From the NCBI GenBank assembly GCA_964016885.1, contig OZ024743.1, positions 147,188,001-147,252,000 of the forward strand: DNA of 64,000 nucleotides. Direction: 5' to 3'. The notes beneath the pieces were generated by a model that did no database searches, had not been told where the DNA came from, and saw nothing but the letters and a program-made list of their open reading frames with translations. Within the stretch, counting starts at the first letter, position 1. Every line of letters begins with the position of its first letter. Positions 30,700-63,247 of this stretch are shown piece after piece. Made by a program: the position numbers and the translations under genes. Source of the stretch: Eledone cirrhosa. Taxonomy: Eukaryota.

Positions 30700-30706
<7 letters not shown>

Positions 30707-30892
30707 AAGCTCTACAGGACTAGAACTGTTTCATTCGTGAGAAATCATCAGGAAGCTGACCTGATGATTTCTCACGAATGAAACAGTTCTACTCCTGTAG
30801 AGGCTTTTCTATATTAAACATTTATACTCTGTACTGTATTGAGTACCTTACTTAGTGGGGTTACCCCCACACCATTGAACCCGGAATAACTT
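30700..30892. mobile_element. Fold-back pseudo-LTR insertion with back-to-back family A hammerheads (30708-30757 minus, 30760-30805 plus)
   Basis: CUGAUGA-UUUCUCACGAAU-GAAA-CAG-8nt-CUG-UA on both strands; consensus stem I GCUUC/GAAGC; flanked by (TA)n. Confidence 0.8.
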
Positions 30893-31232: not shown

Positions 31233-31268
31233 TATATATATATATATATATATATATAGGAAGGTATA

Positions 31269-31309
31269 CGGTGCTGACGATAGCTAATAAGCTTGAAACT
31301 AGTACATAG
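31269..31309 (+). ncRNA. Family C hammerhead with degraded stem I
   Basis: CUGACGA-UAGCUAAUAAGCUU-GAAA-CUAG-UA intact; flanks CGGUG/CAUAG pair poorly. The element extends about 31258-31515. Confidence 0.7.
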
Positions 31310-31795
31310 TTCCTTTGTCAGTGTTGAACAAAAGGGCAACGATGGTTGCTAAACACTGTACAGCTTAATTCGGGATATTTGTTTACAAATAAACCGAGCA
31401 TTATAATAAAAGTTCCGTAAATCCATACGTACATATATATATGTGTGCATGTATGTCTATATATATACATACTACTGTACGTCTGTATACATATATGTAT
31501 GTACGTATACATACTTATATATATATATATATACAATATATTAACAAATGGAAACTATATTTATAAAACCATATTTATTTCATTATACATATTTCAAGGA
31601 CACCAAAGCAAATTATGGTGCGCTTTCATCAGATAAAATATATTATAGATCAGTTTTATAAACATACCCTTAATGACATACCCTTAAAAGAATGCGACCA
31701 TGTCTGTTTTACTCCAAACATTATTGTTGAATGCTTTATATCAGTTATAAAATTATTTGCTTGTTGTATCCCAACAAATTAAATATAACTTCTAC

Positions 31796-35586: not shown

Positions 35587-35590
<4 letters not shown>

Positions 35591-35817
35591 ATAATAATAA
35601 ATTTGAAGACTAAAATCCAAAGAGGGCTCGATAAGGATAAATATATATCAAATATATAAGAACCGTAGAGAAAATATTTATTAAAATAACAGATTAAAGT
35701 TTAAGCAAAGAATCGCTGCTTTCACCCTTAACGGGATCTTCTGAAACAGTTTCAGAAGATCCCGTTAAGGGTGAAAGCAGTGATTCTTTGCTTAAACTTT
35801 AATCTGTTATTTTAATA
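35587..35817 (-). repeat. Fold-back element (arms 35679-35817), inverted copy of 33901-34130
   Basis: Centre CTGAAAC-A-GTTTCAG at 35748; tail is the reverse complement of 34043-34130. Confidence 0.9.
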
Positions 35818-35887
35818 TATATATATATATATATATAAGTATGTATACTAAGAGTGAGAAATGAAATTTCGTTTCATTTTTTCCGTT

Positions 35888-35919
<32 letters not shown>

Positions 35920-43398: not shown

Positions 43399-43401
<3 letters not shown>

Positions 43402-44385
43402 GTGGTTACACAACAGTTAGTTCACCATACCGAGAACAATTGTTTCACCTTAGCGGATCCTCAGCTCGGAATGGGCATGGTTATAGGAACAGGAAGGACA
43501 ACCGTACGAACGCGCATGCGCAGAAACCCGGTCACTTCTCACAGGCAATACTAGAATGCGTGCGAGAGGTGTAAGGGAGATAACAGCAAAAGTCCGAAAA
43601 GTATTTAGTTGAAAAATAAAATTACAAAGAATCAGTCAGGAGCCTTGTTGTTATGCAATAGGTGTTTGGCGACGTGTGGACAACGTGTGAAAAATTCAAT
43701 CCTCGTGTTTAGGCAATCACTATTGCGTAATCTCTTTAGAATAGTTATACGTTCGTCAATACATAAGCCACACGTCGGATTTCCCCTTGCGTATGGCTTG
43801 GACTTAGTAATGGCTTTCCATTGAATGGAGTAGTCTATACTTAAGTCCTTGAGGGACCATACGTGGCTCGCGAGTTTCGTGGATGAACGTCTGTCCGGGT
43901 ATCTGAAGGTAGACTGGTGGTTCAGGAAACGTTCCTTAAATCGGCCCACATAGGATTTGACCTCCTGTGGTTCGTTTGGTCGGTTGGAAGTGACTACAGC
44001 TTCGTAAATTACAGCTGGTATGTTGCATTGCTTTTGAAGGGGGCAAGCTTCAGGCTTACGGCAAGAGCACCCTGGTGGGGTGTTGCTCCTAGGGCTGCTG
44101 GTGATGTGGGCCTTCATGTTCTTAGCGTAGGAGTATCCTAGTTTGACTTTGTGTCGGTTAAAGATGGAGCGGTATTTATGACCTATGGGAAAGTGTCTAC
44201 CTAAGAGGGCTAGAAATGTTGTTCCTACATTGGTTTTAACGTTGAGTGAGAAGGGAGGAGAGAACCATATAGTTTATCTATTGTTGCACTTACTTTTCCT
44301 AATGGTGTTGTTGCTAGTGGGAGAGTAAGTGATAGGTTGTGAGAAGCAGCTGTTAGCCAACGCCGTGTTATAGTAGGGTGCTGCT
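43399..44385 (-). mobile_element. 5'-truncated Naiad-type PLE (end of thumb, GIY-YIG, 3' pseudo-LTR)
   Basis: ORF 43632-44117: CSCRKPEACPL, VIYEA...SYVG, RFKERFLNH, CGLC...RCPH. Upstream AAPYYNTALANS...IWFSPPFSLNVKTNVG aligns to the 814-aa protein. Contains a stop and a small deletion; ends in (TA)n. Confidence 0.9.
43425..43474 (-). ncRNA. Minimal type I hammerhead in the 3' pseudo-LTR of the Naiad fragment
   Basis: CCAUUCCGAG-CUGAGGA-UCCGCUAAGGU-GAAA-CAAUUG-UU-CUCGGUAUGG; stem I CCGAG/CUCGG extended by CCAU/AUGG; palindromic stem III. Confidence 0.85.
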
Positions 44386-44623
44386 AAACACTGTACGGCT
44401 TAATTCGGGATGTTTGTTTACAAACACACCGAGCATTATAATAAATGTTCGGTAAATCCATACGTACATATATATATATATGTGTGCATGTATGTATATA
44501 TATACACACTACTGTACGTCTGTATACGTATGTATGTACTTTTATTTAAGTAAAAGCCGTACTAAGTGTGAGAAATTTCATTTCATTTCATTTTTTTCCG
44601 TTTATATATATATATATATATAT

Positions 44624-46044: not shown

Positions 46045-48076
46045 TTCTTTATTAACCACACGGGTTTACACAAAGTAGACATTAAGGACAGTACAGGACA
46101 ATATAGGACGGTACAAAAGGGCATTTCTGCGTGTAAAAAAAACAAAAAACAGAGGATGTAATAACAGAACACTGAAAAAATTCCCCAATAGGGGGGAAAC
46201 TTCCGAGGGACATTCGTGGAGAAAGCCCATTAAAAGCCACAGTGACCCTGACCAACAGGGCAAGTGCCCTCTCCCAGTTTTCCACCTTTAATTTACAGAC
46301 ACATACTCAGAGTAGGCCCATTCACTCGGGCCATTCTTGCCTCTCTCACCCATCTTTCAACAAAATGCTGGGAAGAGAGCTCTTCCATCTCTACCTTGAT
46401 TTTCCTTTTCAAATGAAATTTGAAAAAGTTATCAGGGCATCACCGAAGAGGTAAGTGCTCGTCTTCAGCCCTTTCAAACGTATCCACCATACTATCTCTT
46501 TCGCCATGGCCACCAGACAAATAAAAACTGCCTGCCCTTCCCGGCTAAAGGAGGAGGGCGGGGCAATCATCACGATGGACTCAGCTGATAGCTGGATCCG
46601 TCCTACACGCGACAGCAGGTGTTCGACATACACCCACAAGTCAGCAATGTTCGGACACTGGACGAGTGCGTGCCGGACGGTTTCGTCGCAATGCGCGCAT
46701 CTCGGACATGCCCGGCTGACGGCACCTCCATGCCTGTAGAATTTATCCCGAACTGGCAAAGCTCCTCGGTAGCACTGCCAGGCCAGGGATTTCTGGAAGT
46801 TGTCCATAGGCCCCGGCCTGAAAGTTCTTCCGAAGAGATTGGCTAGTTGATTTTCGTCGACGCCTAGAGTTTCCCCCAGTACGTCGACGCTCTTCCCCTC
46901 CACTAATCCTCTATAGAACGCCAAGGCGGAGTTTCCACCGACCACATTGCCCGATTGGTCGAGGGCTGTGAGCGCCTGAAGACATTCCAGTCTCCAAGCG
47001 CTCCCTCTTGGTCTTCGCTTGACCCAGTCTGCAGCTCCGCCAAGGAGACGAGCTGGGGAAAGATGTGTGTAGCAAACGGCGACCACACCTGAGCGCGTGT
47101 CTGCGCATCATCAGCCACGGCATGCCCAGCCCTCCAAGTAGCGAGTGTTGACAGCAGATGGACAGCCTGACCATCGGAGCGCATCCCTTCCATCGAAAGA
47201 GCAAACGCTCCAGCGCAGTCAGGCGGGGCTTAGGACAAGGTACGACGGTCAGGCGGTAGTAGATGACGGACGCGATGTACGCGTTAGTCACCTCCGCTTG
47301 ACCTTTCAGGGATAGCTTCCTCTCCGCCCATTTCTGGGTGAGAGAAGCCACCCTGCTCTTCACCTCGTCCCAGTTTTAGTCCGTCTAGAGGTCCGGACCG
47401 AACCAGACCCCGAGCAATTTAACCGGTCCGTCCGTCCAGCGCCTGACGATGCTATTGGACGGCATGGACCTGCCTCTCTAGGTGCCGAGCTACAGGCCCA
47501 CTGACTTTTCCTGGTTGATCATTGCTCCTGTCACCGCTTCGTATTCTCTTAGTGTAGTGCCGATCGCCTCGATGTGTTTGGCGTTCGACAACTACGGTGA
47601 TATCGTCCGCATATGCTAACACGGATCTTCCGCATCCTAGTTCGCGCGATACCCCCCTAACGTCTCCAGTTTGTGCAGTAATGGCTCGAGAGTCAATACG
47701 TACAAGAGGGACGAGAGGGGACATCCTTGGCGGACCGAGCGCATGATGTTGAACGGTTCCGAAAGGTGACCGTTCACTCTCACCACAGAGCAGATGTCTC
47801 TGTGCATGGCAGCGATCCAGCCTCTGAAAACGGGCCCAAAGCCAACCGCCCTCAGGACTGCCGCTAGGTAACGATGGTCGACCCTATCGAAAGCTTTCGA
47901 CTGATCTAAATTGATCAAGGACCCACTCGTGCCAGTTTCCCTAGCTACCTTCTCTACGATGTATCGCATGAGGTGGAGGTTGTCGTGGATGGATCTGTCG
48001 GGAATGGCGCATGACTGTGCCTCTCCCACCAGACCACCAACGACAAGCGCCAACATATTTGCTAGCACCTTGGCCA
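46045..48076 (-). pseudogene. 5'-truncated L1/Tx1-clade LINE ORF2 (RT + CCHC)
   Basis: LINLDQSKAFDRVDHRYL, SVRQGCPLSSLLYVL, AYADDIT, RKLSLKG, GGLGMP, CPRCAHCDETVRHALVQC; frameshifts; AATAAA and (ATT)n at the 3' end. Confidence 0.9.
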
Positions 48077-48350
48077 AAAAAGTGAATACTTCACCTCGTC
48101 CGCCGTAAGTCAAAAGTGGTGTGAGTGGACTGGTCTGAAATAACAGCCCAATACACACAACTTATAAGCTCACCTAGGAAGGGACCCGAAATATAAATGC
48201 AAGGTAGAGTTAATAACTCATACTGAAACCCTAACTCTACCTTTCATTTATATTTCGGCTCCCTTCCTAGGGACTTACGGCCGACGAGGTGAAGTATTCA
48301 CTTTTTTGTTGTGACCGTTACCATCAGGTGTTTGTGGCATTTAATCAGAT

Positions 48351-49966: not shown

Positions 49967-50050
49967 ACCCTCTGACGAGAGTCTCCTTCTCAATGGTGGT
50001 CCGCATGGATTATCCATTTATTTTGAGACTTGAAACCGCGCGGTAAGGGT
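49967..50050 (+). ncRNA. Type I hammerhead, family B, second tandem copy
   Basis: As 48983-49066 but with perfect stem I ACCCU/AGGGU; offset 984. Confidence 0.88.
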
Positions 50051-50934: not shown

Positions 50935-53285
50935 AGTCTAAACGGACGTCTTTTTGCTCGCTCTCGTAAGTTTATTTATTTGCCTGTCAAAACTTATTTA
51001 TTGAATTCTTTGTTGTTGTGTAAGGCATACAAGCCCTTGGACTTTGCCCTGTGAAGGGAAAGAATAATATTTGGGCCTTTTGGCCCAAATATTTGAACTC
51101 TTTTACATTTTTAAAAATTATCGAAAAAAACAAAACAAAAAAAACATCGCTGAGCCACGCCCCACAGCGATATGTCTGCTGTCGTGCGACAACGGCGTAA
51201 AAGTTGAGAGGAAGGCTACGGCGAAAATAACAGAAATTGATACAACAAACGCCACCACAAACACCGGGAACAAAGACAGCAATGATAACAACCCTGAGAA
51301 CTCTAATTTTGAAAAAAATGACAGTATCAGCAACAATGAAAATACAGATAACAGAAAAAATCACAAATGCAACAACAATATTAACACCACTAACATGAAA
51401 ACATTCGCTAGGGTCGACCATCGGTACCTGGAGGCTGTCCTCAAGGCGGCTGGCTTCGGCCTCGTCTTCAGAAGCTGGATCGCTGCAATGCACAGCGGCA
51501 CCTGCTCGGTAGTCAAAATTAATCGCCACCTCTCGGAACCGTTACAAGTCTCCCGATCGGTCCGTCAAGGGTGCTCTCTCTCCTCCCTTTTGTACGTATT
51601 GACTCTCAAGCCTTTACTGCGGAAGCTGGAGCTGTTGTAGGGCATCCCGCTCGAACCGGGACGCGGAAAGGGTGTGTCGGCTTATGCGGACGACATCACC
51701 GTGATGGTGTCGGACACCTCAAAAATCGAGGTGGTCGGCAACTTATTGGAGGAATATGAAAGGTTGACGGGAGCAAAACTTAACCCGGAAAAGTCGGTGG
51801 TCTTGCAACGCGACACCCGGAGAGGCAGGTCCATACCATCCAACAGCGTCTTTAGGCGCTGGACGAACGGAGCGGTAAAGTTGATCGGGGTTTGGTTTGG
51901 GCCAGACCTCCAGGTGGATAAGAATTGGGACGAGCTGACGGGCAGTGTAGTCAGTCTCACCCTTAAATGGGCTAGGAGAAAGCTATCACTGAAAGGTCGG
52001 GCGGAGGTGGCGAACGCGTACATCGCGTCCGTCAGCTACTACCGTCTGACCGTCGTCTCTTTCCCTCGTTCGCGCCTCGCCATCTTGGAGCGGCTCCTCT
52101 TCAAATTCTTGTGGAGAGGTCAGGTTCCGCTGGCGAGGCGGTCCATCTGCTTCCAGCACCCTCCACGTGGAGGGATGGGCGTGCCATGGCTACTAAGCGC
52201 AGACACGTGCTGAGGCTGCGGCATCTCCAGATATTCTGCCTAAACGGTGAACAGGTGTGGACGCCGTTTGTCAGACGGACCTTTCCGCAGCTTGTTTCTT
52301 GACTGAGTTGCAGTCCTGGGTCAAGAAGAGACCGAGACTGGGTGAGTGGTATCTGGAATGTTGCCAGGCACTCACTGCCCTCTACCAAGCGGGCAATGCG
52401 GTCAATGGAACCTCCACTCTCGAGTTCTATAGAGGATTAAGGTGGGCAAATGCGACGACGCACTCGGAGAGGCTCTGGGAGTCGACGAAGTCGAACTAAC
52501 CAGTCTGTTCCAGAATGCTTTCGAGCCAGGGACGATGGATCATTTACAAAAATCCCTTGCTTGGCAGTGCTACCGGGGGGCACTGCCGGTTCGAGATAAA
52601 CTCTACAGGCACGGAAGTGCTGTCAGAGGGACCTGCCCAAGATGCGCGCAGAGCGACGAACCGTTCTGCACGTACTCGTCGAGTGTCCGTGCATTACTGA
52701 CTTGTGGAGTTATGTCGAACAACTATTGTCGTGTGTAGAACGGATACGGCTATCGGCTGAGTCCATAGTGAAGATCGACCAGCCGCCTTCTTTTGGCCAG
52801 GAAGGGCAGAACATTTTCCTTTGTCTGGTGGCAGTAGCGAAAGAGGTTGTATGGTGGACCAGGTTGAAAGTACTGAAGACAGAGACTTTTCTCTTCGGCC
52901 AATCCCTCATCAACTTTTTCAAGTTTCACTTGGAAAGGAAGGTGAGGGTGGAAAGAGAAGTGCTTCCCCCCAGTACATTTGCTGAAAGGTGGGTGAATGT
53001 GGCGAGAATAGCTCGTGTGAGTGGGCCTACTCTGTGTAAATTTGAAGAGGAGAGGGGTGCCCTTCCAGGGTGCTCTCAAAGCGTCGGGTCGTTCAGGATT
53101 GGTGGTGTACCTGAGCGAACCCTGGGTGATCATTCCTCCTATTGGGGAATTTTTCTCGTATTTTTATTGTTAATTTGTTATTGTTATTCATATTGTTACT
53201 CGATTTTTCTGCAAAACCCCACTGTCCCAGTCTTTTGTATTGTCCCCTATATGTCGGCCCTTGTGGCCAATAAATGAAATCAATA
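50935..53285 (+). pseudogene. L1/Tx1-clade LINE, probably internally deleted (RT homology from about 51397)
   Basis: FARVDHRYL, SVRQGCSLSSLLY, SAYADDITV, RKLSLKGRAEV, CPRC..TVLHVLVEC; homologous to 46045-48076; stops and frameshifts. The 5' boundary is inferred. Confidence 0.88.
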
Positions 53286-54382: not shown

Positions 54383-54647
54383 ATATATAAATATATCATA
54401 TATATATATATGATATATATATACATATATATATATATAAGTATGTATACGTACATAGATATATGTATACAGACGTACAGTAGTATGTATATATATATAC
54501 ATGCATGCACACATATATATATATGTACGTATGGATTCACAGAACATTTATTATAATGTTCGGTGTGTTTGTAAACAAACATCCCGAATTAAGCCGTACA
54601 GTGTCTAGCACCCATCGTTGATCATTTGTTCAACACTGACAAAGGAA

Positions 54648-54688
54648 CGCTGTACTAGTTTCAAGCTTATTAGCTATCGTCAGCAACG
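54648..54688 (-). ncRNA. Minimal type I hammerhead, family C
   Basis: CGUUG-CUGACGA-UAGCUAAUAAGCUU-GAAA-CUAG-UA-CAGCG. Confidence 0.85.
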
Positions 54689-55094
54689 TATACCTTCCTG
54701 CCAGATGATTGAAGATCTGAAAGTATATACTTTCCTTATGCATATTAACGGCTGAGCAGCCTAATTTGCATATCGAATGAGTTAATCGGCCGGGCGCACC
54801 GAAAATGATAAACGGAAAAATGAAACGAAATTTCATTTCTCACTCTTAGTACGGCTGTTACTTAAATATAAGTATGTATACGTACATACATATATGTATA
54901 CAGACGTACAGTAGTATGTATATATATATATATACATACATGCACATATATATATATATATATATATATATGTACGTATGGATTCACTGAACATTTATTA
55001 TAATGCTCGGTGCGTTTGTAAACAAACATCCCGAATTAAGCCGTACAGTGTCTAGCAACCATCGTTGCTCATTTGTTCAACACTGACAAAGGAA

Positions 55095-55135
55095 CGCTGT
55101 ACTAGTTTCAAGCTTATTAGCTATCGTCAGCAACG
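55095..55135 (-). ncRNA. Minimal type I hammerhead, family C, tandem copy
   Basis: Identical motif 447 bp from the 54648 copy. Confidence 0.85.
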
Positions 55136-55161
55136 TATACCATCCTGCCGTTTATATATAT

Positions 55162-55308
<147 letters not shown>

Positions 55309-55322
55309 GATATATATATATG

Positions 55323-55354
<32 letters not shown>

Positions 55355-55393
55355 GATATATATATATATATAATATATATATATATGATATAT

Positions 55394-55487
<94 letters not shown>

Positions 55488-55685
55488 GATAAATCTACCA
55501 AGAGTTTACGGTAGTGTCCAATCCGTATGAAGAACTCAATGTATTCCGGATATCATGGAAAGAAGAGATGTAATGAAAAATCACTTTCGGTGAAAGATAA
55601 ACGGTATACAGAGTCAAGATAAAATATTAAACAAATAATGAATAAAACAATGAAACAGTTCCTTATATTAAACAAAAAAAAAGTT

Positions 55686-55835
55686 CATTATTTAACGATC
55701 GTTTCTAGGATATATATGTGTTAGAATTGGTATGCATATTCAACAGATCTATGTACAAAATTATACAGAATTATACAAACTATCAAGATTAAATATACAT
55801 ACCAACACATATATACGCCGTCTTCAGAAATAATG
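55686..55835 (-). ncRNA. Type I hammerhead ribozyme with 115-nt stem II
   Basis: Minus strand: CAUUAUUU-CUGAAGA-[115-nt hairpin]-GAAA-CGAUCG-UU-AAAUAAUG; 8-bp stem I, palindromic stem III ACGAUCGU, GUU triplet. Confidence 0.85.
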
Positions 55836-56447
55836 AAATATATTTATTGATAATAACAACAATTCAAAATTTCAGGTCCGTTTGGGAACAAAATTGACCA
55901 ATGAAAATACAAAAGGTTTTATGCCGTTCGGTGTGTGTATATACATGTAACTACCCTTACACATATTTTACAAAAATGTATGCTCAACATGTATACGCAT
56001 ACCAAAAGGATGGATGCAAATACAAAATTTCAAGGTTAATGTCTCTGTAAGTTTATAATGCACAGATAAGATGCGTATAGACACATAAATATGAAATAAG
56101 TGTATACACATATTCTCATACTCACACATATCCGTACAATCACACACACGCGCGCGTATATGCATAAACATACACATAATTACGAACATACAAACACACA
56201 CACACCCCCACTCACATATATATATATGTGGATATCATAAGCACATGGATATTAATTCACTCACATAAACACTGCCACACACATTTAGATCAAGATACAG
56301 AAATTAGGTGGGAGGGGGGGAGAGGTCAGTATTCAACGGTTTGAGCAGACTGCTTATTATAGATGTATCTATAAACTAAGAAAATAAAAAATAAAAATTA
56401 AAAGGAAAGAAAAGAAAAAGAAAAGAAAAAAGAAATATATCAAGAAA

Positions 56448-59564: not shown

Positions 59565-62009
59565 TTAAATGTTTTTTTTTAGTTTATGATTACACGATAT
59601 AATTAATTCCTGTCGTTTATTTAATAGGATATCCTTAGATTTCATTATTTCAAATAGTTCTTGGGAACATAATCTACATTCATTTCTATTATTTTGATAA
59701 GGGGTGGCTCTTTTGAGCACACTCCAGGTCAAATCATATTCTATATTCTTATTTTTATAACTATTGATTTTTTCTGCTAGAGATGTTGTATTAGCCAGTG
59801 CGGCATTTTTAAAACTATGCTTGTGGGTATTAAACCTTGTCTTAAAATTGTTAGAGGTAGCTCCTATATATGAGCAAATAGAATCTTTAGTTTTAACATT
59901 ACATTTATAGACTATGTTGTTAACAAGACAATTCCCTTTTAATGGGCAGTTTGCTTTGTTTCTACAGTTACAACCTTTCGTTAATTCTGTATTTGAGGAG
60001 ATATTATGGTTAATTTGATGTACTGGTGGTATACTTATGGTTTTCTTACATTTATATGCATTATAGGCACTTATATTTTGTTTTATGTTATTTGTTGTAG
60101 AGTATGAGAATTTAACTGTAGACCTATTTAAGATTTGATGGTATTTGTGGTTTGGCGGGAAGTTTTTCTCTAGGATATAAAAAAATTTTTTAGCAATATT
60201 ATCCTTAATTTGTAAATTAAATGGAGCATTATACCAGGTAACCCGTCTATTACGGTTTCTATGTTGTTTATTATTTTTATTATTTTTATAGGTTGTATCG
60301 TGATGTTTACTAGGAGGATTAATGTTAATGATCTCACCACAACTATTTTTAGTTATATTTGTAGATTTAGGTGTTTTATCCTTTTTATTAGGAGTTTTAT
60401 TATTAATATTTATTAGAGTTGTATGATGAGTAGTTTTTTGAGAGTTACTATATTTTATATTAGAAGATTTGGTATTTTGGGGTATAGTGTGGGTGGCATT
60501 TAGGTGTGTACTTTTCATTTGGTGTTTGTTGGTAATATTAGGTTGTATGCTTTTAGTATTTTTAGTAGAAGGTATATATTCTAATCTATTTTTGTGGCCA
60601 CTTCTATCTAGAGCTTCGTTATAGAAGGTCGCATTTTTATCAAATACATCTTGGTTAGAAGAAAGGTTAGAAATTCTAAGTGATATATTATATGCAAGGT
60701 TTTTAAGGATAGATTTAGGGTGATTAGATTGTGAGTGTATGTAATGTAAGTTTTGGTTTGGTTTATGGTAAGGTTGGTAGATACCCGTAGCTAAATCTAA
60801 AGTTATATCTAGGAAATTTACTACTTTACTTGTTTTTTCAAAAGTAATATGAAGATTATAATAGTCTTTAAGGAAAGTTCTAATATGTTTTTTGTTTTTT
60901 TCAATTTCTGAAAGGCTAAGGTTGTTAGAAAGAAGAAGACAGTCATCACGATATAAACCACCTTTGAGGTGGGGAAAGGAGGCATTTATGTTGAAAAGGA
61001 GAAAGAGGCCCACAAGATCAGTAATTTGGGCGGAATCGCTTGAACCCATAGTAATATCAAATAGATTACTATATGTGTTTCTGGTCCAGTATTCATTCTG
61101 AAATTCAATAAGTGTTAGTCTAGCATGTGTAATAATATTAATGTCATCCAAAGTTAAGTTAGATCTATTTTTAGCAAATATCAATGCTTTGTTCAGGAGT
61201 ATAGGTGATATAGAAGAGTAGTAATTATCTATATCAAATTGTAGAAATGAAGCAGAAGATTTACATCTAATATTTTTAAACCAGTTAATTACCTGGGAGG
61301 TGTTTTCCCAGAGTGGTAAAATAACGTGTTTTCTTATTTGTGGGATGACTCTATCCAAAATTTTTTTGCTAATTATTCCAATATCTGATTTGGAGGGACA
61401 TATAAGTCTAATAGAAGGATTTGAGTTAAAGTTTGATTTATGATCCTTCAGGTTGAAGTGTGGTCTTTTCAATGCCAAAGGTTCAGTTCTATCTTCAATG
61501 TTTAGTTTTTTTACTATGTTGTGTGTTTTGTTGTTGATGTTGGTGAGTGACGCATTATTAGATTTTTTATAATTTTTTCTGAGTTCTTTATATATGAACT
61601 CATTATAATGTTCAATATCCATATGATACAAGTTACCAGTTTTGTCCGAGTGGACATGGATTTTTTTAGACTTTTTTAGGTCCAATAGGGTAGAATCAAG
61701 GTCCTTTTGAAAGACGGATTTATACTTTTTAAATTTGAGGTGTTTAATTAAATTAAAAAGGTCTTTCTCGAAGTCTTCAAGTAAAAAGTTGTGTGGTGGA
61801 TTCTTGTAAGTATTGAAATCATACATATATTTCCGATCTGCTTGTTTAGATTTTTTATCGAAGTGGTAGGCTCTCCATCTAACCCTTCTGATAAAATTAT
61901 TAGTTTTTTGAATCATAAGGAGTAAGAAGTCATCCTTAGAAGGTATTGGTATGTTTTTTAAAGAGGTTCCCAAATATTGTTTTTCCATTGTGATATGGAT
62001 GATGGACAA
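59565..62009 (-). CDS. Penelope-like retroelement polyprotein (RT + GIY-YIG endonuclease), Naiad-type, 814 aa
   Basis: Uninterrupted ORF with PLE RT motifs HSDKTGN, LKDHK, IRLICP, FLQFDIDNYYSSI, ITMGSSDS, LYRDD, VNFLDITL, YHKP, SNHP; linker CNCRNKANC (CxCx5C); GIY-YIG-like NIVYKC...SYIGAT...FKTRFNTH; C-terminal CRLC...SCNH. Start codon uncertain (ATG of MEKQY near 61988 is an alternative). Confidence 0.95.
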   Translation of the reverse strand: MSIIHITMEKQYLGTSLKNIPIPSKDDFLLLMIQKTNNFIRRVRWRAYHFDKKSKQADRKYMYDFNTYKNPPHNFLLEDFEKDLFNLIKHLKFKKYKSVFQKDLDSTLLDLKKSKKIHVHSDKTGNLYHMDIEHYNEFIYKELRKNYKKSNNASLTNINNKTHNIVKKLNIEDRTEPLALKRPHFNLKDHKSNFNSNPSIRLICPSKSDIGIISKKILDRVIPQIRKHVILPLWENTSQVINWFKNIRCKSSASFLQFDIDNYYSSISPILLNKALIFAKNRSNLTLDDINIITHARLTLIEFQNEYWTRNTYSNLFDITMGSSDSAQITDLVGLFLLFNINASFPHLKGGLYRDDCLLLSNNLSLSEIEKNKKHIRTFLKDYYNLHITFEKTSKVVNFLDITLDLATGIYQPYHKPNQNLHYIHSQSNHPKSILKNLAYNISLRISNLSSNQDVFDKNATFYNEALDRSGHKNRLEYIPSTKNTKSIQPNITNKHQMKSTHLNATHTIPQNTKSSNIKYSNSQKTTHHTTLININNKTPNKKDKTPKSTNITKNSCGEIININPPSKHHDTTYKNNKNNKQHRNRNRRVTWYNAPFNLQIKDNIAKKFFYILEKNFPPNHKYHQILNRSTVKFSYSTTNNIKQNISAYNAYKCKKTISIPPVHQINHNISSNTELTKGCNCRNKANCPLKGNCLVNNIVYKCNVKTKDSICSYIGATSNNFKTRFNTHKHSFKNAALANTTSLAEKINSYKNKNIEYDLTWSVLKRATPYQNNRNECRLCSQELFEIMKSKDILLNKRQELIISCNHKLKKNI

Positions 62010-62138
62010 TTGAAAGAGCTCAACTAAATGTATATGGGTTTATAAAATCATACATATATATGTATATACACAAATATAAAATTAATACACACATACAGTA
62101 CAAAAATACGAATATTTCCGTGAAAATAGGAGCAAAAT

Positions 62139-62713
62139 TATGTAGATAAATCTACCAAGAGTTTACGGTAGTGTCCAATCCGTATGAAGAACTCAATGTA
62201 TTCCGGATATCATGGAAAGAAGAGATGTAATGAAAAATCACTTTCGGTGAAAGATAAACGGTATACAGAGTCAAGATAAAATATTAAACAAATAATGAAT
62301 AAAACAATGAAACAGTTCCTTATATTAAACAAAAAAAAAGTTCATTATTTAACGATCGTTTCTAGGATATATATGTGTTAGAATTGGTATGCATATTCAA
62401 CAGATCTATGTACAAAATTATACAGAATTATACAAACTATCAAGATTAAATATACATACCAACACATATATACGCCGTCTTCAGAAATAATGAAATATAT
62501 TTATTGATAATAACAACAATTCAAAATTTCAGGTCCGTTTGGGAACAAAATTGACCAATGAAAATACAAAAGGTTTTATGCCGTTCGGTGTGTGTATATA
62601 CATGTAACTACCCTTACACATATTTTACAAAAATGTATGCTCAACATGTATACGCATACCAAAAGGATGGATGCAAATACAAAATTTCAAGGTTAATGTC
62701 TCTGTAAGTTTAT
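62139..62713 (-). repeat. Direct pseudo-LTR copy (575 bp) of 55482-56056
   Basis: Matches by eye from TATGTAGATAAATCTACC to TCTGTAAGTTTAT at a constant offset of 6657. Confidence 0.95.
62343..62492 (-). ncRNA. Second copy of the long-stem-II hammerhead, in the 5' pseudo-LTR
   Basis: Same sequence as 55686-55835. Confidence 0.85.
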
Positions 62714-63247
62714 TATATATATGTGTGTGTGTGTATGTGTGTGTGTGTATATATATCTTTATATATGTGTATGTGTATGTTCGTGTAGGTGTATGTGTGT
62801 GTATGACTATATATGTATGTGTGTATGTGTGTATGTATGTATATGTATGTGTGTGTACATGTATGTATGTGTATGTATGTATGTGTGTGTATATGTGTAT
62901 GTATATATATATATATATATGTATATGTATATATGTATGTGTATATATATGTATATATATATATGTATATGTATCTCTATTTGTATATGTATATGTGTAT
63001 AGGTATATACCTTTTTCTTTGTATGTCTGAGTTGTGTGAGAGTGTAGTGGTGTTTGTATGTATATACCGATATATGGATGCGTAAGTATTTGTGTGTATG
63101 TATGTATGTATGTCTGCATGTATTTGTGTGTATATATAGGTATGTATGTGTATATCTGTATGTATATAAGTATGTATGTGTATGTATATGTGCGTGTATG
63201 TGTGTATATATATGTGTGTCTATATAGTATGTGTGATTATGTGTGTA

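Follow-up and report, generated by a model that had tools for sequence, protein, structure and literature searches.

What copied the non-coding tandem repeat that stands beside a coding Penelope-type element (PLE) in the genome of Eledone cirrhosa, and from what form of RNA was it copied? The repeat lies in the 64,000-nucleotide stretch of contig OZ024743.1 analysed here (hereafter the window) and carries two hammerhead (HHR) motifs. We number its unit from u1, the first base 3' of the predicted cut, which is position 55099. The parts of the locus and the dispersed copies in the window are as follows.

55094..55136, minus strand: upstream type I HHR, predicted cut between 55100 and 55099 (descriptor scan)
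54647..54689, minus strand: downstream type I HHR, predicted cut between 54653 and 54652 (descriptor scan)
54432..55149, minus strand: the insertion's main arm, with about 1.6 units in tandem, from u398 through one full unit to u237
54653..55099, minus strand: predicted unit-length RNA of 447 nt, if both HHRs cut
54808..54862, minus strand: 55-nt 'tail' (u238-292) between the two fixed 3' ends of the family, inferred RT start sites
55148..55154, plus strand: inverted arm of 7 nt that reaches the second 3' end (u292), head-to-head with the main arm
55153..55484, no strand: (TA)n tract between the repeat and the neighbouring PLE
31258..31523, plus strand: dispersed copy, u401 to u237, with one HHR (stem I G-U variant, one extra mismatch)
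35820..35890, plus strand: short dispersed copy with its 3' end at u292, without HHR
44382..44605, plus strand: dispersed copy, u43 to u292, without HHR

The initial annotation had proposed identical HHRs 447 nt apart, and alignment confirms two direct copies (91% over 287 columns). The HHR cores lie on the minus strand, with starts at 55130 and 54683; the identity between them extends beyond 70 nt, and the tandem copies of the repeat differ by 9 substitutions in 255 aligned nt. The 447-nt spacing holds at this locus, where a longer internal (TA)n adds length; in the family, HHRs in tandem lie a median of 430 nt apart (range 396-503, n=38). The main arm starts at 55149, and its far end merges with (TA)n at about 54432-54439. 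With a GC content of 35%, no LTR and a longest ATG ORF of 68 codons, the unit is non-coding. The three dispersed copies are real and all lie on the plus strand. The sequence CCGTTTATATA occurs three times in the window, always on the plus strand. Its sites at 35883 and 44598 are 3' ends of the family; the one at 55148 has the opposite orientation to the main arm. The CCGTTTA at 55148-55154 is thus an inverted family 3' end, as annotated, but the family has two such ends and not one.

Both window motifs have the same architecture, with stem I formed by ACGUUG/CAGCGU and followed by CUGACGA and U, a helix II of 4 bp with loop AAUA followed by U and GAAA, and a helix III of 2 bp with a palindromic loop. 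Helix I has 6 bp, and an extra 5-bp helix could close it beyond a UAU/U internal loop. The annotated helix III palindrome ACUAGU and a predicted cut 3' of GUA are present in both. The label 'minimal HHR' does not fit: the helix sizes are closer to those of canonical metazoan type I motifs than to the min-HHR of metazoan PLEs, which is described in PMC4209133 as having no helix III, a long helix II and a G10.1-C11.1 pair. The unit, in contrast, has a 2-bp helix III, a 4-bp helix II and U-U at the helix II base in place of that usual pair. In this it recalls the axolotl HHR_Amex2, whose helix II base is also U-U and which was 22% cleaved in 1 h as a monomer and cleaved better as a dimer (PMC7229834). 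The predicted HHR of the unit is likely to be slow as a monomer.

By descriptor, the unit carries the type I HHR that marks metazoan non-LTR retrozymes, although the Rfam models miss it: they gave no hammerhead match in the unit at E<=10, and for the whole window microsatellite noise alone stands among the 150 of 320 matches listed. Nor does the isolated 56-nt HHR fold better than its shuffles (z -0.44, -0.15). Variation in stem I nevertheless keeps pairing. Across 207 copies, the pair u414:u3 is U-G in 133, G-U in 37 and A-U in 19, a covariation that amounts to roughly two events among source variants and not to 56. The HHR fold has likely been under selection in the source copies.

The repeat is one of a very large family. 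In the 3.0 Gb of genome searched, the exact 31-nt HHR core has 10,046 matches and its reversed control has 0, so the window motif is not a chance occurrence; two other unit patterns have 3,923 and 4,023 exact matches. Of 20 stretches of 10 kb taken arbitrarily, 4 contain a copy of the unit, a rate that suggests insertions in the tens of thousands. Tandem arrays were looked for elsewhere in the genome and found: 12 of the 133 arms surveyed below hold at least two HHRs, and the largest arrays hold 6. Copies at different loci are about 6.3% divergent, and neighbouring units within tandems are still 4.3% apart. One array of five HHRs (L113:2836-4772) has an ABAB pattern, its alternate units identical and its adjacent units about 4% apart, and likely stems either from a dimer that was duplicated recently or from the assembly. 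A candidate coding element between HHRs 4.6 kb apart (C1:22.595 Mb) was rejected as two separate insertions. Parts of the unit also occur, at a low share, in contig runs of three other organisms. The earlier proposal of a non-coding HHR tandem family is therefore supported; at the level of sequence, the family is not a chance motif and has the characters of a metazoan non-LTR retrozyme. A search of mainly open-access literature returned no description of this family or of a retrozyme tail anatomy, and Repbase may catalogue the family; within reach of that search the family is new, and its kind is already known.

The coding neighbour is a PLE with these parts.

59565..62039, minus strand: intact ORF of 824 codons with RT and, at the C-terminal end, a GIY-YIG-like region
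55482..56059, minus strand: 3' pseudo-LTR, with a direct copy at 62139-62716
62709 to 317 nt beyond the window: inverted 5' arm

Its unit measures 6657 nt and includes a 4-kb microsatellite-rich 3' region. Motifs read by eye against Craig et al. (DKT, a CxCx5C linker, a C-terminal GIY-YIG without CCHH and a TERT-like RT) and its TA target make the neighbour a Hydra-clade-like PLE. YRDD is invariant across 100 homologues, the ORF has a named Argonauta homologue, and the predicted protein model (pLDDT 86) has telomerase RTs as its top fold matches; Pfam gave no significant match for the ORF, and a PDB sequence search likewise did not recognise it. All 55 scored copies of this family are 99-100% identical, and its two exact ends have 4,115 and 1,942 genomic matches. 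HHRs are called universal in Hydra PLEs (Craig et al. 2021, 10.1101/2021.04.23.441226), whereas the neighbour has no type I or III descriptor match on either strand, even with one core mismatch, and its 3' end has no Rfam hammerhead match; a decayed core may lie at 55827 (minus strand). Its 6657 nt likewise departs from the size of less than 3 kb usual for that clade.

Several other elements crowd the same stretch. The 3' part of a second Hydra-like family, at 43400-44270 (minus strand), has its own HHR at 43464, again with U-U at the helix II base, and this family has two TA-adjoining 3' ends, one kind of which has 1,669 exact matches. A further HHR family with a long helix II is seen at 49972 (plus), 48988 (plus) and 32027 (minus), including two direct copies 984 nt apart. 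At 30700-30830, a head-to-head palindrome of a short element lies between TA tracts, with a CTGATGA...GAAAC core that gave no HHR match by descriptor. A head-to-head short element at 35589-35815 is nested with the 35820 copy, and its ends recur beside other unit copies. Broken LINE-type RT fragments (RVT_1, zf-RVT) occupy 46409-48161 and 51068-52213.

The ends of the insertions carry the main evidence on how the unit moves. We surveyed the first 100 matches of a pattern downstream of the cut, which gave 82 loci. Of these, 8 were overlapping views of another locus, 3 were duplicates made after insertion and one pair was duplicated; without them, 71 loci with 133 arms were kept, all within the first 77 Mb of one contig and chosen through an exact match of 27 nt, a choice biased towards young copies. 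The 5' ends are scattered, and the 3' ends are fixed at u237 and u292, where they run into (TA)n. By count, u231-242 and u277-298 each receive 57 arm ends, and 19 arms end outside both, so that 114 of the 133 stop at either of two sites 55 nt apart, with TA directly after 101 of these 114. The insertion ends lie in (TA)n, and no target-site duplication of more than 4 bp could be read from such flanks.

Arms meet head-to-head at 47 of the 71 loci. Of the 49 pairs, 12 include an unclassified end; among the 37 classifiable ones, 35 combine the two kinds of end (binomial p 1e-8) and 2 use a single kind twice. The window locus shares this geometry. Its 7-nt inverted arm is the extreme case of a short u292 arm; in 8 of the 35 mixed-end pairs the u292 arm measures at most 71 nt and breaks off close to the other start site, which is what two primers on one RNA would be expected to give. 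Short u237 arms lie in a microsatellite and are possibly under-detected.

A stretch between two internal RT start sites is what defines the PLE tail in vitro, and such a tail is called unique to PLEs (PMC11167929). The coding neighbour family, as a positive control, behaves in the same way: it has two 3' ends 137 nt apart, and the inverted partner, where visible, uses the other end in 23 of 24 cases (three insertions were seen from both sides), with no partner end within 1.5 kb at 36 of 60 sampled ends. Both marks of PLE mobilisation are found in the unit family, namely the two-end tail and partial tandems with an inverted 5'-truncated arm. The annotated mobilisation by a PLE RT is accordingly backed by insertion anatomy. 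On these grounds, we think it probable that the locus is an insertion of a high-copy non-coding HHR repeat, copied in trans by a TA-targeting PLE RT-endonuclease, likely from an uncut RNA template; the enzyme was probably of the Hydra clade. In this process, a PLE protein would nick both strands of a (TA)n tract, reverse transcription would start at two internal sites 55 nt apart, one for each DNA end, and the two cDNAs would be joined at their 5' ends. At the window locus, such joining would give the 718-nt arm and the 7-nt inverted arm. Twin priming, as a term and as a geometry, comes from LINE-1 work.

Which RNA was copied is a narrower question. The 104 arms at risk made 119 passages across the predicted cut; 4 stops lay no more than 5 nt from it, against 4.2 expected. 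Because 5' ends ignore the predicted cut, the usual copied template is not a cut linear monomer; the unit RNA would likely not yet have been cut to monomers when copied. There is, on the other hand, a cluster of 5' ends at u342-357, in a predicted hairpin (17 of 104), where the RT may have paused, ends may have been joined or an RNA may start. We give an uncut multimer about an even chance of being the template, and hold it slightly likelier than a ligated circle.

A circle is a serious competitor, though one that falls somewhat short of an even chance: the same PLE machinery would copy a unit-length molecule, ligated after double HHR cleavage, and an RT running round it would generate long arms. 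The absence of a stop at the cut fits a circle equally well, and the arms with at least two HHRs and the covarying stem I also speak for it. Tandem units of one arm agree at variant sites at 0.87 (41 loci) compared with 0.68 across loci (the two arms of one locus agree at 0.80), and share rare bases in 6.0% of cases versus 0.6% for units of different loci. The predicted circular fold is 68% paired (z -7.2, partly from AT palindromes), with stem I pair probabilities of 0.45-0.94, and coral, mussel and axolotl retrozymes make circles (PMC7229834). Variant sharing and a stable circular fold, however, would also fit a homogeneous multimer. Against the circle, the neighbour PLE family builds arrays of four full units without a detectable HHR, so tandems need no circle, and the five-HHR ABAB array is best read as local DNA duplication. 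In vitro, HHR cleavage is dispensable for PLE insertion and uncut RNA is the dominant substrate (PMC11167929), and cleavage failed in 8 of 9 Xenopus dimers (Li et al. 2026, 10.64898/2026.07.22.740005). The 4.3% difference that remains between adjacent units also speaks against it. Variants specific to unit order, which would favour a linear master, were sought and none was clearly recurrent. A bolder version, in which a Hydra-clade PLE enzyme acts as a dimer and copies an abundant 430-nt circle from double HHR cleavage, starting at two fixed sites of that circle, one for each target strand, seems to us rather doubtful.

The unit might instead be only the pseudo-LTR of a coding PLE, with its copies the 5'-truncated 3' ends of that element, which we regard as improbable. 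The unit does have all the traits of a pseudo-LTR (HHR, tail, TA target, inversions), and Xenopus retrozymes are homologous to pseudo-LTRs (Li et al. 2026). At the locus L019, an arm directly joins a Hydra-like 3' UTR; other copies of that family cease matching before the junction and bear their own, different HHR, and the join was rejected as a link to a partner because it is private to that locus. More generally, arms pass a full unit into another unit and never into common ORF sequence, and of 13 matches in a search for degenerate look-alike HHRs, 11 read as mutated unit-family copies. We compared 74 unpaired 5' flanks, taken from unit copies after removal of 27 duplicate loci. No pair of them has common sequence that reaches both junctions in register, except for local duplicates and one nested TA-tract element, and no upstream ORF is shared among them, which argues that the unit is not simply a pseudo-LTR. 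Several copies in which the unit follows an RT-EN ORF in register were likewise not found, and the flank and L019 checks showed no sign of the pseudo-LTR reading. Among the 10,000 copies there could still be a rare coding partner that bears this HHR, and the unit likely came originally from a pseudo-LTR that is now extinct.

For the unit as a trans-copied repeat, a partner was also sought by similarity. Across 43 sampled TA-end clusters and the neighbour (a sample of about 1 Mb), no autonomous element resembled the unit, the top matches being unit copies, and 27 UTRs showed no similarity to it apart from two chimeric or nested cases; it is therefore the insertion anatomy that points to a PLE partner. 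A third Hydra-like family has its 3' end at 31530-31660 (minus strand) with an HHR at 31632, and faces the 31258 copy tail-to-tail, with one TA tract between them. Copies of this family are about 4.5% apart, an age similar to that of the unit, which makes it a candidate partner. The motif CCRTTTAT lies close to the ends of two Hydra-like families as well as of the unit; its offsets differ and it was picked after the fact, so we treat it as a lead.

The initial annotation took the adjoining coding PLE as the autonomous partner, and this part is not supported. That the adjacent 6.66-kb Hydra-like element mobilised this very copy, the two forming one unit, is quite unlikely. It lies on the same strand 330 bp away and shares the TA target and two-end anatomy, and older relatives occur in run X1 (contigs at 90-95% and below 90%). 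However, it has no similarity to the unit (z 0.4) and no detectable HHR, and it is much younger: its pseudo-LTRs differ by 1 substitution in 578 compared with 9 in 255 in the unit tandem, which would make it about 20-fold younger than the window repeat, and the best 10 copies compared are 0.7% apart, against about 6.3% between unit copies. The unit lies within 600 nt of 0 of 60 of its ends, compared with 8 of 352 background TA sides; an apparent preference for the unit at first was gone in these 60 position-ordered ends. For another Hydra-like family, the unit lies within 600 nt of 3 of 30 ends (2 distinct). At L123 and L125, an old unit-subfamily copy (about 80% identical, HHR core retained) has a multi-unit copy of the neighbour within its internal (TA)n, so there too the neighbour arrived later. 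Because no sampled end adjoins the unit and the TA tracts of the genome are an end site for dozens of families, the adjacency is likely a chance later nesting in a TA tract. The mobilising partner could possibly be an older member of the neighbour's lineage. We also speculate that the neighbour, co-oriented and upstream, might drive read-through over both HHRs. Barely credible, finally, is a satellite or minisatellite spread at the DNA level with an HHR-like motif without role, a reading that the AT-rich palindromes within the unit, the local duplications and the missing Rfam match would suit. Against it stand marks of retrotransposition, namely 3' ends at fixed sites, 5' ends that scatter and inverted arms that come in pairs, together with the pairing kept despite stem I variation.

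The mobiliser of animal retrozymes has so far been argued from co-occurrence and homology, and according to a 2020 review, retrozyme repeats show no motif that points to a partner (PMC7761336). The two-start-site tail in the ends of the unit, together with a coding PLE control from the same genome, provides independent genomic support for mobilisation by PLEs, and excluding cut monomers narrows the choice of template to an uncut multimer or a circle. If the circle and dimeric-PLE reading were true, this genome would record tens of thousands of rolling-circle, twin-primed insertions, and the unit would be the first retrozyme in which the insertions themselves reveal the class of the mobiliser and the sites of priming. 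It would also be a ready substrate with which the full retrozyme cycle could be reconstituted using intact PLE ORFs from the same genome.

Set against known systems, as far as the accessible parts of the cited sources describe them, the unit resembles metazoan non-LTR retrozymes (PMC7229834; PMC7761336) in being non-coding, with GC below 50% and one type I HHR per unit, within their 150-450 bp range, in thousands of copies and with a strongly self-paired predicted circle. It differs in occurring mostly as dispersed, shortened, often inverted insertions in (TA)n and not in arrays, in its two fixed 3' ends, of which those parts describe none, and in being known from genome sequence alone, its cleavage and circles being predicted. 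With Hydra-clade PLEs (10.1101/2021.04.23.441226), it has in common (TA)n targeting, the HHR, partial tandems, an inverted 5' arm and a tail on one end, whereas it lacks an ORF and matches no sampled Hydra family in sequence. Poseidon PAc of Anolis (Frangieh et al. 2024, PMC11167929) likewise has two adjacent internal starts that define a tail, and an AT-rich target, and its insertion is independent of HHR cleavage; PAc, however, is autonomous and was tested in vitro, whereas the evidence for the unit is genomic, and the tail of the unit has 55 nt compared with the usual 30-40 bp. Xenopus retrozymes (10.64898/2026.07.22.740005) and non-autonomous Chlamys elements such as MRC1 are, like the unit, head-to-tail and tied to PLEs, in their case by sequence homology and in that of the unit by insertion anatomy. 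Judged by that anatomy, the unit behaves as a non-autonomous PLE.
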